Origin: Parcubacteria group bacterium
GTDB taxonomy: Bacteria > Patescibacteriota > Patescibacteriia > UBA1558 > GWA2-36-10
Reading direction: 5' to 3'
DNA: 64,000 nucleotides
NCBI GenBank assembly: GCA_003104935.1
Contig: PQAE01000006.1
Location: forward strand, 1,037-65,036
Positions 3,379 to 55,560 of this stretch are shown here, one piece after another. Below the pieces are notes generated by a model. That model was not told where the DNA came from. It did not search any database and saw nothing but the letters and a program-made list of their open reading frames with translations. Made by a program: the position numbers and the translations under genes. Position 1 is the first letter of the stretch. Every line of letters starts with the position of its first letter.

Positions 3379-4074
3379 TTATTTTATTTCCTCTTTGCTT
3401 AAAATACGGTACTGGCCCAGAGGCAAATTACCCAGATCTAATTTGCCTTCGCTTTGGCGGATGAGAGTCAAAACGTTACAACCCAACTCATCCAGCATGC
3501 GCCGGATCTGCCGCTTAAATCCCTGATGCAGGACAATCTGGATATAACCGTTGCCTTTATTTTCCACGGCATCGGCCCGAGCCCAGCCTTCGTTAAATTT
3601 CATTCCTTTTAACAGTTGTCCGGCCATCTCCTCAGTAAAGGGCCGGTCAATACGGACAATATAGGTCTTTTTTATTTCAAACTTGGGATGAGTTAATTTA
3701 AAAGCCAAGTCGCCGTCATTGGTCAAAAGCAATAGGCCCTGCGATTCTTTATCCAGCCGGCCGACCGGAAAAACTTTGGGCAATTTCGGAACCAGTGATA
3801 AAACCGTCTGCGGATTATACCTGTCCGTGACCGTACAGACATAACCGCGCGGCTTGTTTAACAAATAATATACTTTAAAATCTGGCTGTAGCAATTTGTT
3901 GTCCAGGGAAACATCGGTGGCATCGGGAGAAACATTGGTGGCTACGTCAGTCACTACGCCGCCGGCGATTTTTACCCGACCGGACTCTATGATGACCTCG
4001 GATTTGCGCCGCGAAGCTACTCCGCATTTGGCCAAAAAACTGGCCAATCTTATTTCCCGCCTATTTCTTCCCAT
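3379..4074 (-). CDS. rRNA pseudouridine synthase, RsuA/RluB family (S4 domain + catalytic domain)
   Basis: 231 aa; N-terminal S4-like segment (LAKCGVASRRKSEVIIESGRVKI), catalytic GRLDKESQGLLLLTND motif. Confidence 0.75.
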   Translation of the reverse strand: MGRNRREIRLASFLAKCGVASRRKSEVIIESGRVKIAGGVVTDVATNVSPDATDVSLDNKLLQPDFKVYYLLNKPRGYVCTVTDRYNPQTVLSLVPKLPKVFPVGRLDKESQGLLLLTNDGDLAFKLTHPKFEIKKTYIVRIDRPFTEEMAGQLLKGMKFNEGWARADAVENKGNGYIQIVLHQGFKRQIRRMLDELGCNVLTLIRQSEGKLDLGNLPLGQYRILSKEEIK

Positions 4075-5156: not shown

Positions 5157-5858
5157 TTACAATTTCTTAATATTTAATTCGCCGAACATCTCGCTTTGTT
5201 GGACCACGATTTCACGCTGTTTGATCAGCTCCAGCATGGCCAGAAAACTAACCACAACCTCCACTTTATCATTGCTATTTTTTATCATCTGACTGAAGTT
5301 CAGACTGACTTTTTCTTTGATCAGATCACGCAGATTTTTTATTTTTTCGCTGATAGAAATAACGCGGTTCATCACCGCCTTGGGCATCTGCATGACCCGC
5401 TCGATCCGGTAAAGAATCTCCTGAAAAACCTGAGCCAGGATACCAGCGGTGATATGAATCGGCGGTAAAAACTCTTTGGCCGCTACGCGTCTATAAGGCA
5501 CATTGCGCACCAAAGCATAGCGTTTTTTACTGTTGTAAAGACGATTAACTACTTTACTGGCTTCATAATATTGTTTATAGATTTTCAGTTGCCGCTCCAG
5601 CGAGCCAGCGTCATCCTCGTCGGTCAGATCCAGATTGGGCAGTAAATACTTAGATTTGATATAAATCAATTTAGAAGCAATCAATAAAAAATCCGCCACC
5701 TCCGCCGATGGTAAATTTTCGCTTTTTTCTATATATGATAAATACTGGTCAGTGACCTGAGCCAGGGAAATCTGGGTAATTTGCAGTTTATCTTTCTCAA
5801 TCAGCGACAAAAGCAAATCCAGCGGCCCCTCAAATTTTTCCAATGAAAATTGGTGCAT
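5157..5858 (-). CDS. scpA: segregation and condensation protein A
   Basis: 233 aa; LEKFEGPLDLLLSLIEKDKLQITQISLAQVTDQYLSY kleisin N-terminus. Confidence 0.8.
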   Translation of the reverse strand: MHQFSLEKFEGPLDLLLSLIEKDKLQITQISLAQVTDQYLSYIEKSENLPSAEVADFLLIASKLIYIKSKYLLPNLDLTDEDDAGSLERQLKIYKQYYEASKVVNRLYNSKKRYALVRNVPYRRVAAKEFLPPIHITAGILAQVFQEILYRIERVMQMPKAVMNRVISISEKIKNLRDLIKEKVSLNFSQMIKNSNDKVEVVVSFLAMLELIKQREIVVQQSEMFGELNIKKL

Positions 5859-5916
5859 TATGGCTTAATTCTCAAATTTTAGCGCTTAAATTATATCATT
5901 TCAGGGTATTTTTTTC

Positions 5917-6151
5917 AAATAGAAAAGGGACCCTGCACGCAAGAACAGAGTCCCTTCCGCCACCGGCAGACAGCACGGTCTCGGGTGGCAACGGTCTCAG
6001 GGGGTGCGGGCCGGACGCGCCGCGTCTAGGATCCGTACAGCGTACACATCCTATTATCGCTTTCCCGTCAAATCGGGGAAGATTCGCTCCTCACCGGAAG
6101 CTCACGATAACTTGGGCATCTCCACCCCCTGATTTCTAATGAACTTTAATA
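5917..6151 (-). ncRNA. GC-rich structured small RNA candidate (family not recognised)
   Basis: About 235-nt GC-rich block between scpA and the upstream gene. Has its own minus-strand promoter (TTGACT-17-TAATAT). Only 5-7 codon ORFs. Predicted long-range stem CAGGGGGUG/CACCCCCUG enclosing hairpins (GUAC-GCU-GUAC, GACGC-GGC-GCGUC, GCCACC..GGUGGC). Ends in a 9-bp stem GGGACUCUG/CAGGGUCCC followed by UUUUCUAUUU (intrinsic terminator). Confidence 0.4.
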
Positions 6152-6158
6152 AGTATCT

Positions 6159-6187
6159 ATATTAGTATAAAAATCGGAAAAAGTCAA
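6159..6187 (-). promoter_or_regulatory. sigma-70-like promoter for the GC-rich sRNA (TTGACT-17-TAATAT)
   Basis: rc of 6182-6187 = TTGACT, rc of 6159-6164 = TAATAT, 17-nt spacer. Confidence 0.4.
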
Positions 6188-6207
6188 GGGCAATCATAAT
6201 AAATGAA

Positions 6208-6239
6208 AGACCCCGATCAAGCTGAGCTCGATGGGGTCT
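6208..6239 (-). terminator. intrinsic terminator of the 6264..6794 gene
   Basis: Hairpin GACCCCATCGAGCUCAGCUUGAUCGGGGUC followed by UUUCAUUU on the minus strand. Confidence 0.5.
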
Positions 6240-6263
6240 TCTTCCTAGGACGTGACCTAGGCT

Positions 6264-6794
6264 CTACTTCCGAGCGGTGCGCGGCTCCTTTGTGGTGGTA
6301 GCCGTGATGGCTGTCTTCATGGCCGCCCAGAAAGCGGACTGTTTGACCGAAGAGATGAATTCTTCGGTGTATCTGCACTGACTCTCGGCGCAGACGAGTT
6401 CCTTTGTCTCCACGCTGAGCGAAGTGTGCATCACCGTGCCATCAGTCGGCACGATGATTAGAATGGGATCGGTCATCGCCTTCTCGTTGCTAGCATACAC
6501 CCAGAAGGTGAAACCGCCGCCATTGATGCTGACCGTCAGGCTGGGATAGGCCGACAGGTACTTCTGGATTTCCTGATCCTGCCACACCTGGCACAGGAAT
6601 TCGGTGCTGAGCACCGGATCCTGCACGGCCTGAGTGATAGCCGTGCGCACTTCCTGCGGTACGATGGACTGGATCTTCGCAGTCTCGGCCGAGGCTGGAG
6701 TAGCTGCGAAGAAGCAGTAGGAGAACCAGATGGCTCCGATGATGGTGGCCCCGATAATGAGGCTGAATCCCATATATCCGAGATAACGACGCAT
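6264..6794 (-). CDS. hypothetical membrane-anchored protein, GC-rich cassette gene
   Basis: 176 aa; N-terminal TM helix; local GC about 55% against the AT-rich background; RBS AAAAGGGAGCGGAAA-ATG; own promoter and terminator. Confidence 0.5.
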   Translation of the reverse strand: MRRYLGYMGFSLIIGATIIGAIWFSYCFFAATPASAETAKIQSIVPQEVRTAITQAVQDPVLSTEFLCQVWQDQEIQKYLSAYPSLTVSINGGGFTFWVYASNEKAMTDPILIIVPTDGTVMHTSLSVETKELVCAESQCRYTEEFISSVKQSAFWAAMKTAITATTTKEPRTARK

Positions 6795-6842
6795 TTTCCG
6801 CTCCCTTTTGGGGTACTATCTAGCAGTTTGCTAGAACATAAT

Positions 6843-6871
6843 ATAATACCACATTTTTTACATTTTGTCAA
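6843..6871 (-). promoter_or_regulatory. promoter TTGACA-N14-TGg-TATTAT for the 6264..6794 gene
   Basis: rc of 6866-6871 = TTGACA; rc of 6843-6848 = TATTAT; 17-nt spacer with extended -10 TG. Confidence 0.45.
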
Positions 6872-7021
6872 CTACATTATAAACACAACACCTAACGCAG
6901 CCATGCTATCATTACAAATGTGGATAAAAAATATAATCATAAAAAAATATCGGAAATTTTCTGTTTGACCTTTTCTAACCATTTGATAAAATGATAACAC
7001 TAATAATTAATTAGAATTTGT

Positions 7022-7288
7022 ATGTTGAAGAAAGAGAAGCGACCCATTACTCCCGAGGCCTTCAAGGGCCTAGAAACCGTTGTCCGTTATGTGGTTAGAG
7101 AAGAACTAACTCCATTTCAGGAAGAAGTAAGATCTCAATTTCATCAACTCCAGCAAACAGTGGATGGTTATTTAAAGCAAACTATCGGTTGGCACGATGA
7201 ACAAACTATCCTGACCGCCCGCGTAGATAAAATACAATATGTAATGCTAAAAAAGAAGTTGGCCTCGGGATCGGAATTGGCAGTTTAA
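7022..7288 (+). CDS. hypothetical small protein
   Basis: 88-aa ORF isolated on the + strand, followed by the hairpin terminator at 7298-7335; no recognisable domain; weak RBS. Confidence 0.35.
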   Translation: MLKKEKRPITPEAFKGLETVVRYVVREELTPFQEEVRSQFHQLQQTVDGYLKQTIGWHDEQTILTARVDKIQYVMLKKKLASGSELAV

Positions 7289-7297
7289 TATTATTTA

Positions 7298-7335
7298 AGC
7301 AACATAAAAGAAGTTGGCTGGCCAACTTCTTTTGA
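7298..7335. terminator. bidirectional hairpin terminator (AAAAGAAGTTGGCTGGCCAACTTCTTTT)
   Basis: Perfect palindrome flanked by A/T runs between convergent 7022..7288 (+) and aspS (-). Confidence 0.5.
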
Positions 7336-7354
7336 TTTTGCAAAGTTAAATAAA

Positions 7355-8770
7355 TTATTTTTTTACCTGAATGCCTAATTCGTCTAATTGCTCTTTAGAT
7401 ACCGCCGAAGGCGAATCCATCATCGGATCCCGTCCGTCTGAAGTTAGTGGAAAAGCAGTTACTTCTTTCAGATTTTTCTCACCCAGCAAAACCATCAATA
7501 ATCTATCAATGCCCGGCGCAATGCCGCCATGCGGCGGTACGCCGTATTTAAAAGCTTCAAAATAATGGGCAAATTGTTTTTTCTGTTCTTTTGTAAAGCC
7601 GATAATGTCCCAAATTTTTTCCTGTAATTTCATATCGTGGATGCGAATCGCTCCTCCACCCACTTCAAAACCATTGAGTACCAGGTCATGCTGATAAGAT
7701 CGAACAGCACCAGGATTTTTGTCTAATTTCTTTATATCCTCTTCTTTAGGAGCGGTAAACATATTATGCGCCGGCCCCCATTTTTCGCCGGCATAATGAA
7801 AGGTGTCTTCTTTGGTCTGAGGCAGCATCAGAGGGAAATTTAAAATCCAGGCAAAAGCCAATTCATCCGGATTATTTTTATCTTTTCTTAGATCCGGCTT
7901 GTCGGTCTTGTATTTTTTTATAACCTCGTCATAATCCAAACGCGGCCATGGTTTTTGGCTAATTTTTTTCTCGGGAAATAAAGTTTCTACTAGTTCGGTG
8001 AATAATTTTTCAGTTAAGTCCAAAACATCTTCTTGTTTTACGAAAGATATCTCCATATCCAGCTGATAAAACTCGCCGGGACTGCGGTCAGCCCGGGCGT
8101 CTTCATCACGGAAGCACGGCGCAATCTGAAAATACTTTTCCATGCCGGCAATCATCAATAGCTGTTTGTACTGCTGGGGCGCCTGAGGCAGGGCAAAAAA
8201 CTCGCCGGGGTGTAGCCGCGACGGCACCAAATAATCTCGCGCTCCTTCCGGAGTGGATTTGGATAATATTGGAGTTTGGATTTCTACAAAATCATGCGCA
8301 TGCAAATATTCCCGGATAAAATGAATGACTTTGTCGCGCCACAAAATATTATTTTTCATGCGCTCATGACGCAGATCTAAATATCTGTATTTTAATCTTA
8401 ATTCTTCATTGGCCTGTCTGTCTTCATTAGCAATTTCAAAAGGCGGAGTTTCCGACTGGGATAAAACCTGTATTTTCTTGACCAGTAATTCAACCGTGCC
8501 CGTAGGCATATCATTATTAATCTGCTTGTCTCCTCTTTTCTGGACTACTCCTTCCACAGCCAAAACAAATTCCGGCCGGATATCCTTGATAATTTGCTGC
8601 GACTCGGAGTCCAGCTCATTTGGCACGACCACGACTTGCATGATTCCCCAGCGGTCGCGCAAATCTAAAAACACTATTTTGCCCATATTGCGCCGGTTAT
8701 TGACCCAGCCTTTGATTAAAACAGTTTTCCCGACCTGAGACACTGTTTCGATGGTTTTGATTCGGTTCAT
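7355..8770 (-). CDS. aspS: aspartyl-tRNA synthetase (short form lacking the GAD insertion domain)
   Basis: 471 aa class II aaRS; QQYKQLLMIAGMEKYFQIAPCFRDEDARADRSPGEFYQLDMEISF closely matches the AspRS motif 2 region (QLLM...CFRDEDLRADRQPEFTQ); N-terminal OB fold. Confidence 0.85.
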   Translation of the reverse strand: MNRIKTIETVSQVGKTVLIKGWVNNRRNMGKIVFLDLRDRWGIMQVVVVPNELDSESQQIIKDIRPEFVLAVEGVVQKRGDKQINNDMPTGTVELLVKKIQVLSQSETPPFEIANEDRQANEELRLKYRYLDLRHERMKNNILWRDKVIHFIREYLHAHDFVEIQTPILSKSTPEGARDYLVPSRLHPGEFFALPQAPQQYKQLLMIAGMEKYFQIAPCFRDEDARADRSPGEFYQLDMEISFVKQEDVLDLTEKLFTELVETLFPEKKISQKPWPRLDYDEVIKKYKTDKPDLRKDKNNPDELAFAWILNFPLMLPQTKEDTFHYAGEKWGPAHNMFTAPKEEDIKKLDKNPGAVRSYQHDLVLNGFEVGGGAIRIHDMKLQEKIWDIIGFTKEQKKQFAHYFEAFKYGVPPHGGIAPGIDRLLMVLLGEKNLKEVTAFPLTSDGRDPMMDSPSAVSKEQLDELGIQVKK

Positions 8771-9358: not shown

Positions 9359-9575
9359 TGGAGCCACCCGTCCCGCCTGTGGCGGGACGACCTCTTCCTT
9401 ATGCCGCCTGAGGCGGCACCCCGCCAGCGGGCGTGGCGAAATTATTGTTTGTGGAGCCGACTATCGGGCTTGAACCGATGACCTGCGGTTTATGCCGCCA
9501 GAGTATAACGAAGTGCGGCACCCCGCCCGCTGGCGGTGGCGATACCGCCGCTCCCCGCCTGCCTGCGCCTTGGTC
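9359..9575 (-). repeat. two tandem degenerate tRNA 3'-half-like units, each fused to a conserved GC-rich hairpin module
   Basis: Unit 2 (9461-9545): rc ends ...GGCGGCATAAACCGCAGGTCATCGGTTCAAGCCCGATAGTCGGCTCCA with a canonical T-arm, acceptor 3' strand and CCA, but no matching 5' acceptor strand. Unit 1 (9359-9443): rc ends ...GGCGGCATAAGGAAGAGGTCGTCCCGCCACAGGCGGGACGGGTGGCTCCA and shares TAAGGAAGAGGT with tRNA-Thr. Both share the module TTATGCCGCC..GCGGCACCCCGCC.GC.GGCG.TGGCGA. Confidence 0.4.
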
Positions 9576-9652
9576 TGGAGCCGATGGTCGGAATTGAACC
9601 GACAACCTCTTCCTTACGAAGGAATTGCTCTGCCAGTTGAGCTACATCGGCG
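9576..9652 (-). tRNA. tRNA-Thr (anticodon CGU)
   Basis: rc GCCGATGTAGCTCAACTGGCAGAGCAATTCCTTCGTAAGGAAGAGGTTGTCGGTTCAATTCCGACCATCGGCTCCA; cloverleaf with 7-bp acceptor, D-arm GCTC/GAGC, anticodon loop TTCGTAA, T-arm GTCGG/CCGAC, CCA encoded. Confidence 0.8.
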
Positions 9653-54809: not shown

Positions 54810-55331
54810 TTAACTCTTTTTCTCTTTGATGGCGCTCAGGGCATAAACCAGTTTACGGGTATTGCCACTCAGTACTTGAACCAAACCACTGATCGGAGCA
54901 TTGATAGTGCCGACCAATTTAGCCAGTAATTGCTCGCGGCTGGGCAGTGTGGCTAAGCGTTTGACCATGTCGGCCAAGACAAACTTGTTTTCCAAAATAC
55001 CGCTACCGAGTTCCAGAGCTTCATTTTCCTTGGCATACTTATTGATTATCTTGGGCCCGGTTACCTCGTCTCCATAAGACAAAGTTACGCCGACAGAACC
55101 ACGTAAGTTGTCCAAAGCCTCGGCTTCACCTAGTTCTTTGGTAGCCAACTGTAAAATGGTTTTTTTGGCGACCAAATACTCTGCTCCACCCTGCTTTAAC
55201 TCACGACGCATTTTTTCTACGGTTTTGACGTTTAACCCCTTGTCGGAACTAAAAACCACGGCCTTACTTTTGGCTATTTTTTCCTTGATATCCTCTAAAA
55301 CCTTCTTTTTTTGGGCTTTACTTTTTGGCAT
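54810..55331 (-). CDS. rplJ: ribosomal protein L10
   Basis: 173 aa; immediately upstream of rplL; typical L10 N-terminal region. Confidence 0.85.
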   Translation of the reverse strand: MPKSKAQKKKVLEDIKEKIAKSKAVVFSSDKGLNVKTVEKMRRELKQGGAEYLVAKKTILQLATKELGEAEALDNLRGSVGVTLSYGDEVTGPKIINKYAKENEALELGSGILENKFVLADMVKRLATLPSREQLLAKLVGTINAPISGLVQVLSGNTRKLVYALSAIKEKKS

Positions 55332-55560
55332 ATATTTAATAAAAAACTGCGACTTTCACCGCAGACAGAGCCAAAATATGGCTATTTTCCTCGGTAGGAT
55401 TTATCCCTCGACTTCGCTCGGGACCTACTGTCTACGGCTATATTTAAATTATGGCTATATACTAGCGGAAATGTGGAATGCTGTCAAGTGTTTAGGCAAA
55501 TGAAAGAGCCGGAACCACAGATGATCTCGGCTCAAAGAGTGGACGCCGGGCGAACTCCCT
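55332..55560 (-). promoter_or_regulatory. putative rplJ leader (L10-leader-like structured 5'UTR)
   Basis: About 230-nt GC-enriched untranslated region upstream of rplJ with several hairpins (AGGGGAAACTCTCC.., CCCTCGACTTCGCTCGGGACC..); by analogy with L10(L12)4 autoregulation. Confidence 0.3.

Follow-up and report, generated by a model that had tools for sequence, protein, structure and literature searches.

The DNA analysed here, referred to as the window, is a stretch of 64 kb, on a 70.8-kb contig, from the metagenome-assembled genome of a Parcubacteria group bacterium whose ScpA protein finds its best matches among Komeilibacteria-like sequences. Upstream of its scpA gene, GC content reaches 0.50-0.58 over positions 5850-6750, compared with roughly 0.40-0.45 in the surroundings. 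In this region the preliminary description had proposed an independently transcribed, GC-rich structured non-coding RNA, a core reading that is now backed by synteny, covariation and the finding of no conserved ORF. The genes and signals at the locus are as follows.

8770-7355, minus strand: gene for a class II aminoacyl-tRNA synthetase
7022-7288, plus strand, opposite to that of the candidate RNA: ORF of 88 aa, without a Pfam family
6794-6264, minus strand: ORF of 176 aa with a hydrophobic N-terminal segment, without a Pfam family
6159-6187, minus strand: sigma-70-type promoter of the RNA (-35 TTGACT at 6187-6182, 17-nt spacer, -10 TAATAT at 6164-6159)
About 6152-5917, minus strand: candidate RNA gene, between the 176-aa ORF and scpA
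6133-6152, minus strand: AU-rich 5′ leader of about 20 nt, defined from the aligned promoter and leader regions
5917-5954, minus strand: intrinsic terminator with the stem GGGACUCUG/CAGGGUCCC (5954-5946 with 5935-5927), a 10-nt loop and the U-tract UUUUCUAUUU (5926-5917)
5890-5918, minus strand: promoter of scpA itself (TTGAAA-17-TATAAT with an upstream TG, 11 of 12 matches), a neighbour lying outside the RNA
5157-5858, minus strand: scpA (SMC_ScpA, 233 aa), the constant downstream neighbour of the RNA

On the minus strand, scpA is followed by scpB, a NUDIX gene and a pseudouridine synthase gene, in that order.

The TTGACT-17-TAATAT promoter has 9 of 12 matches in a promoter scan and is one of 10 promoter-like matches in 2.5 kb, where 4.7 are expected. 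Its proposed position on the minus strand (6187-6159) is supported by comparison with relatives: in each of the four homologous loci described below (L002, L003, L007 and L168), the RNA is preceded at an equal distance by a promoter of the form TTGAC(A/T)-16/17-TAnnAT. From the position of the -10 element, transcription is predicted to start near 6152, which would place at the head of the transcript a leader whose motif, GUUCAU, is conserved within the clade.

At the other end, the U-tract stops at 5917, leaving a gap of 59 nt to the ATG of scpA at 5858. The terminal hairpin is not listed by the terminator scanner because its 10-nt loop exceeds the scanner's limit of 8, yet it is present in every fold computed, and compensatory changes occur within its stem (helix 8). 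The 9-bp terminal stem and U-tract near scpA that had been noted earlier thus hold, with the stem kept in relatives. The -35 element of the scpA promoter shares two bases with the last two of the U-tract, and this promoter is conserved even in relatives without the RNA, L169 and L090 among them.

Homologous loci and their gene neighbours

Four more distinct sequences, found through the genomic context of the closest ScpA proteins, carry the RNA unit immediately before scpA. This gives five in total, and in all of them ScpA is at least 69% identical to that of the window.

L002: ScpA 80% identical
L003 (identical in L004 and L005): ScpA 69% identical
L007 (identical in L006): ScpA 70% identical
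L168 (identical in L210): ScpA 69% identical

Each of these four loci carries the promoter, the GUUCAU leader, a folded body, the terminator and the scpA promoter, in this order. P0008 was left out of the comparison, as its contigs are too short upstream.

The genes on the upstream side are less constant. The GC-rich 176-aa ORF has its own near-consensus promoter (6871-6843, minus strand) and terminator, and its product is an orphan protein, probably membrane-anchored or secreted. This protein has only two database relatives, namely its own record and a protein at 53% identity (L001), the latter being the sole other full-length relative among 5.8 billion proteins. In L003 and L168 the homologous slot is without this ORF, and so probably is that of L002, for which the sequence extends 210 nt upstream of the RNA; in L007 the RNA seems to follow it, judged by eye from the similar end of the upstream ORF. 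The only relative of the 88-aa ORF, at 74% identity, is in L168/L210. The RNA follows this ORF in L168 and, to judge from sequence resemblance, probably in L002; in L003 the 88-aa ORF is absent and the RNA comes directly after the synthetase gene. Across the loci compared, neither ORF always adjoins the RNA, so neither provides a linked protein partner. The tie between the RNA and a 'GC-rich cassette gene' that the preliminary description had implied is therefore given up: the RNA and the 176-aa gene do not form one unit, because the ORF varies and because its copy in L001 precedes a different hairpin transcript.

That transcript, at 1340-1435 of L001 downstream of the 176-aa homologue, has a TTGACA...TATCAT promoter and a short hairpin, AAUUGGCUAAUCCGCGUUUGACGCGGGAAGCCAAUUUUUU. 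The inner hairpin resembles the P2b element of the window RNA (CCCCGAUUUGACGGGAAAG), a likeness that may be due to chance. Within the window, a perfect 12-bp hairpin (AAAAGAAGUUGG-CCAG-CCAACUUCUUUU, 7306-7333) between the convergent synthetase gene and 88-aa ORF looks like a bidirectional terminator, and it accounts for weak near-matches to the Rfam families ncr1015 and OrzO-P.

Secondary structure and covariation

The predicted transcript of 246 nt folds at -100.3 kcal/mol (z = -3.8), and none of 200 shuffled sequences folds as well. Its structural parts, in addition to the leader and the terminator, are listed here; all are on the minus strand.

5997-6132: 5′ domain, with P1 as its closing stem; all cells of its curated helices are standard pairs
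6132-6123 with 6006-5997: P1, the long-range stem CAGGGGGUG/CACCCCCUG, kept in relatives
6120-6117 with 6017-6014: P1b, followed by a short P1c
6111-6105 with 6059-6053: P2, a helix of the three-way junction
6101-6097 with 6090-6086: P2a hairpin, inside P2
6080-6076 with 6066-6062: P2b hairpin, inside P2, with the 9-nt loop CGAUNNGAM
6052-6048 with 6032-6028: P3, a helix of the three-way junction
6007-6013: invariant asymmetric bulge of 7 nt, CGGCCCG, flanked by P1b and the 3′ strand of P1
5959-5989: P5 hairpin, in which a conserved pyrimidine-C mismatch separates the lower from the upper stem, capped by a variable loop

The length of P1 ranges from 10 to 12 bp across the sequences (UCAGG.../...CCUGA). 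The CGGCCCG bulge is identical in all five sequences and faces between zero and three variable nucleotides. At the three-way junction, which can be written (C)AA / P2 / P3, no nucleotides separate P2 from P3, and a second junction inside P2 bears P2a and P2b. The CGAUNNGAM loop of P2b is kept in four of the five sequences and the loop of P2a is variable (CGGUGA, CCGUGC, CAGUG or GUCA). In L007 the interior of P2 (P2a and P2b) has been swapped for one long hairpin, and L168 is without P3. A short linker joins the 5′ domain to P5, whose lower stem is GCCACC/GGUGGC in the window and GUCACC/GGUGAC in relatives (helix 7, 96% paired) and whose mid-stem mismatch takes the form C.C three times and U.C twice among the five sequences; the terminator abuts P5. 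All the stems that the preliminary description had named, the long-range P1, the GCCACC/GGUGGC stem of P5 and the terminal stem, are formed in the fold and kept in relatives.

A covariance model built from four sequences recovers all five at 117-239 bits. In the model-based alignment of the five sequences, standard pairs fill 93.8% of 260 pair cells, compared with 42-55% when the 3′ partners are slid by one to three columns, and 18 pairs show changes on both sides, compared with 2-5 in the slid controls. The observed values for pairing, double changes and covariation are matched by none of 500 shuffles. As this alignment misregisters P1, the length of which varies, the helices were also tabulated by hand. 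The curated table has 57 columns, in which all 236 cells are standard; 25 of the columns vary and 20 of the 57 are compensatory, with most compensatory changes in P2, P2a, P2b and P3. Because the structure guided its construction, the table favours the fold, and the 93.8% of the model-based alignment is the less biased count. Although the power of the covariation is limited by five distinct sequences, two of which have an identical 3′ half, compensatory substitutions maintain the pairs, and we therefore conclude that the fold is under selection. A comparison with related intergenic regions had been suggested as a check when the RNA was first described, and the compensatory changes among these five syntenic sequences bear the proposal out.

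The identical 3′ halves belong to L002 (about 320-435) and L168 (about 3550-3665). The two share about 115 nt at 100% identity, beginning with UCCGGCCCGCC and taking in the 3′ strand of P1, the linker, and P5 and the terminator with their loops, in a promoter-RNA-scpA unit that is 69% identical over its whole length. The simplest reading of this pattern suggests a recent exchange of the 3′ module between the two lineages.

Coding potential and known RNA families

The region had been described as holding ORFs of only 5-7 codons. In fact a 31-codon ORF with a TTG start lies on the sense strand (5991-5896) and a 98-codon ORF with an ATG start on the antisense, plus strand (5843-6139), and neither is conserved. 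That the region codes for protein through either of them is barely credible. The two ORFs exist, and a tblastn search with the 98-aa product finds 44% identity to L002, but this is no more than the shared nucleotides impose. In L168 and L003 the 98-aa ORF is interrupted by in-frame stops and shifts of frame, and L007 has no counterpart; the ORF has no Pfam match, and it would cross the promoter and start codon of scpA in antisense. The TTG start of the sense ORF is missing in L002. Moreover, the indels between homologues are not multiples of three, and the substitutions are pairwise-compensatory rather than codon-periodic. A conserved protein ORF in relatives, which would have spoken against an RNA gene, was looked for on both strands of the five sequences and none was found. 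The features of a stand-alone small RNA gene are instead found together here: a promoter of its own, no conserved ORF, an intrinsic terminator and syntenic homologues in relatives.

A scan of the 64-kb window with Rfam 15 at gathering thresholds returned four tRNAs and one L10 leader only, and nothing at the RNA. At E values up to 10, positions 5700-7400 are without a match to 6S RNA, SRP RNA, RNase P RNA, tmRNA or a riboswitch. Matches below threshold inside the RNA, to ctRNA_p42d (16.8 bits, gathering threshold 50), SpR20 (14.2 bits, threshold 45) and BjrC68 (13.9 bits in the window within a range of 13.9-20.1, threshold 39), are terminator-shaped or small-hairpin alignments, and the four homologues searched at E values up to 1 gave terminator-shaped sub-threshold matches only. 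The resemblance to generic bacterial small RNAs such as BjrC68 and ctRNA_p42d consists of a 3′ hairpin and Rho-independent terminator shape; these RNAs have no counterpart to the 150-nt 5′ domain. ARAGORN found four tRNAs and no tmRNA in the window. The Rfam scan called for in the preliminary description has thus matched no family at either gathering or permissive thresholds. Since it matches no described RNA family, the RNA represents a new small-RNA family, of narrow distribution.

The ribosomal protein L10 leader (RF00557) lies at 55331-55455 on the minus strand and scores 48.4 bits, with a gathering threshold of 44. Downstream of tRNA-Thr (9576-9651), positions 9386-9575 on the minus strand contain two partial tRNA-like copies that end in ...GGCUCCA like tRNA-Thr. 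Each has an anticodon-arm-like and a T-arm-like segment, following a repeated GC-rich element, GCGGCACCCCGCC... The copies adjoin a GIY-YIG gene (9337-9035), and ARAGORN and Rfam call neither of them a tRNA. They may be duplications of a tRNA 3′ half that arose from integration events, or some other repeat.

It is extremely unlikely that the RNA is a diverged member of a known housekeeping family (6S, SRP, RNase P or tmRNA) that has escaped the covariance models. A GC-rich, stable fold and a strong promoter are what such an RNA would also have, and none of the four lies elsewhere in the 64-kb window. Against this stand the searches of the surrounding 1.7 kb and of the four homologues, in which no family was matched, and an architecture that fits none of the four. 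In place of the end-to-end rod with a central bubble of 6S RNA (RF00013), the fold is branched, with a closed 5′ domain backed by covariation and two independent 3′ hairpins, and its largest internal loop is the 7-nt bulge. Bacterial SRP RNA, small (RF00169) or large (RF01854), would show a hairpin with the conserved GNRA helix 8 and GGAA...AGCA motif, which is not found. The conserved blocks of RNase P RNA of types A and B, GGAAAGUCC and ACAGAA..CCGGCUUA, are absent from all five sequences; the folded RNA of about 215 nt is also below the size of the smallest bacterial RNase P RNAs. For tmRNA there is neither a tRNA-like end nor a conserved tag reading frame. The RNA is, furthermore, absent upstream of scpA where ScpA is at most 65% identical. 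A housekeeping RNA would be expected to be more widespread, but copies away from scpA may exist in those genomes. The early exclusion of tRNA, tmRNA, RNase P RNA and small SRP RNA therefore stands, whereas 6S RNA and a long-form SRP RNA, which had been kept as options, are not supported; what remains of the options is the 'novel sRNA'.

Some of the RNAs considered here are nonetheless instructive for comparison. 6S RNA binds the RNA polymerase holoenzyme and templates a product RNA, its bubble mimicking an open promoter. The window RNA is like it in its abundant-type promoter, its length of about 200 nt, its poor conservation between lineages and the protein-binding mode in trans that we propose. 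Unlike 6S RNA, it has no stem joining its two ends and no large central bubble, and Rfam gives no match. A parallel in organization is offered by orphan complex-folded non-coding RNAs of bacteria that have come to light through comparative genomics alone, such as the raiA motif RNA and candidates of the kind listed by Weinberg et al. (2017; PMC5737381); these are likewise defined by covariation, have multi-stem junctions with invariant nucleotides, measure 150-250 nt, have no assigned biochemical function and are restricted in lineage. The window RNA differs in that it matches none of those in Rfam 15 and is known from five Parcubacteria sequences at one syntenic site. In the literature on non-coding RNAs of candidate phyla or on RNAs near scpA, we found nothing relevant.

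The scpA slot and possible modes of action

The distribution of the RNA was surveyed in 160 scpA loci with flanks, collected from Patescibacteria genomes and metagenomes by two collection scans with a ScpA alignment; a genome scan with a single ScpA protein as query returned nothing. Beyond the five close sequences, no copy of the RNA turned up in these loci, either with the covariance model (R1) or with an nhmmer profile search under --max. The loci without it upstream of scpA, at ScpA identities of 65% or below, include L169/L170, L171 and L173; with filters off, L010 and L171 give a 6.9-bit match to the 3′ hairpin and terminator, or nothing. A blastn search of phage and plasmid records found no similar sequence. 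In viral contigs the pattern CCGGCCCGCCA..CTGACC occurs in 33 matches, none of which fits the model, and we attribute them to chance. The RNA family is so far known only from one small Komeilibacteria-like clade of Parcubacteria, in five distinct sequences.

Relatives whose ScpA is 54-63% identical have in the same slot a promoter, 160-420 nt of non-coding sequence and a terminator, directly before the conserved scpA promoter. These units are located as follows.

L010: 2233-2453
L088: 29-192
L092: 2220-2438
L171: 9782-9942
L173: 5519-5941

No similarity could be detected between their bodies, or between any of them and the window RNA, and Rfam assigns no family to the bodies of L010, L088, L092 and L173 (L171 was left out of this search). 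Several of these distant units share the leader motif GU(U/A)CAU with the window RNA, the form GUUCAU itself recurring in the leaders of the unrelated RNAs of L171, L092 and L010, and several carry unpaired C-rich or CCUCC-like stretches; within the L171 slot, CCGCCACCCC is similar to the 3′ strand of P1. In the wider group, the terminator lies 54-67 nt before the scpA start in 8 of the 12 closest non-redundant loci. To judge from these resemblances, which are weak, the slot looks like one ancestral small-RNA locus with fast turnover of its body.

We consider it probable that the locus is a gene in its own right, whose product, a structured non-coding RNA of about 235 nt, represents a new family and acts in trans, most likely by binding protein. 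The fixed adjacency to scpAB could nevertheless reflect a relationship in cis. As a cis-regulatory leader of scpAB, a riboswitch or a protein-controlled attenuator, the RNA would sense through its 5′ domain and regulate through its terminal hairpin. The position immediately upstream of scpA on the same strand, without exception, speaks for such a leader. So does the fold, which is rich in junctions, has invariant residues there and in the bulge, and leads into a terminator, as in many riboswitches. Terminating riboswitches and the window RNA have in common a promoter, a junction-rich conserved domain, a hairpin, an intrinsic terminator and a constant gene on the same strand. The resemblance ends, however, with the switch itself. 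In folds of truncated transcripts, the 5′ strand of the terminator has no conserved alternative partner: when the transcript is cut before the 3′ strand, the 5′ strand is unpaired or adds just 2 bp to P5, and no antiterminator pairing is conserved for either strand. A separate, strong scpA promoter lies past the terminator and persists in relatives without the RNA. Riboswitch aptamers are strongly conserved, whereas here the body is replaced by unrelated sequence in only slightly more distant relatives. Known riboswitch classes were in any case rejected, as no aptamer model is matched at E values up to 10 or in the homologues. A leader function is distinctly unlikely on these grounds; a terminator without a conserved competing pairing and an scpA gene with a conserved promoter of its own make a stand-alone RNA acting in trans the likelier reading.

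The RNA might pair in trans with mRNAs through an unpaired stretch, which could be the leader, the CGGCCCG bulge or the linker CUGACCA. The promoter-to-terminator layout with a 3′ hairpin and terminator is typical of bacterial small RNAs, and fast sequence turnover in a syntenic slot is usual for them. We nevertheless regard antisense action as unlikely: small RNAs that act through a seed are typically far less structured and GC-rich in the body, the invariant segments here are short and lie within helices, and sequences complementary to the bulge show no enrichment in the window (11 matches compared with 8.8 expected). An origin from a mobile or selfish element, as a guide or scaffold RNA, a retron-like RNA or a small ribozyme, would agree with the changing upstream neighbours, where the 176-aa and 88-aa orphan ORFs come and go, with slot RNA bodies that differ between lineages, and with the 3′ half common to L002 and L168. 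Such an origin is very unlikely, since no locus has an adjacent reverse transcriptase, transposase, nuclease or recombinase gene, flanking repeats are absent, the RNA is single-copy in the window, phage and plasmid records and viral contigs hold nothing similar, and the position relative to scpA is fixed. A diversity-generating retroelement with a template-variable repeat was also rejected, as no direct or inverted repeats occur between the RNA and the 176-aa gene.

For the stand-alone RNA, the protein-binding mode is the one we infer to be most likely, and the argument comes from where the invariant residues lie. They are found in the bulge, the junction, a hairpin loop and the mismatch rather than in long seeds, and for this reason we favour protein binding over antisense pairing. 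An asymmetric bulge, a junction, a loop and a mid-stem mismatch are typical features of protein or ligand recognition. If the terminator forms constitutively, the RNA would be released as a discrete molecule and could act in trans. The invariant 7-nt bulge and the mismatch-bearing hairpin may then serve as binding sites for a protein, which would make the RNA either a component of a ribonucleoprotein or a sequestering RNA. The neighbouring genes offer no candidate for the protein partner, those on the upstream side being variable.

A more far-reaching reading, which we think unlikely, is that these sequences represent a new class of complex RNA, a ribonucleoprotein core or a sensor of ligand or protein. 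The RNA of this clade would then be the local form of an old, fast-evolving gene tied to scpAB in Komeilibacteria-like candidate-phyla bacteria, with a constant promoter, GUUCAU leader and terminator around a body that diversifies and can swap modules between lineages.

Candidate-phyla bacteria have tiny genomes, and to our knowledge almost no regulatory RNAs have been characterised experimentally in them. An RNA of 235 nt with nested junctions, compensatory mutations and a near-consensus promoter is unlikely to be idle in such a genome, and comparably complex folds have in the past proved to be ribozymes, ribonucleoprotein cores or sensors. The present value of this five-sequence family is as a documented candidate for Rfam-style curation and for checks in metatranscriptomes. 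It would become more interesting if a wider search showed the family to be large, if one of the canonical housekeeping RNAs were missing from the clade, or if the slot proved to be a general site of small-RNA turnover. As a syntenic 'RNA slot' that holds different small transcription units in neighbouring lineages, just before the chromosome-condensation genes scpAB, it provides a concrete site at which the turnover of non-coding RNA genes in reduced genomes can be studied.
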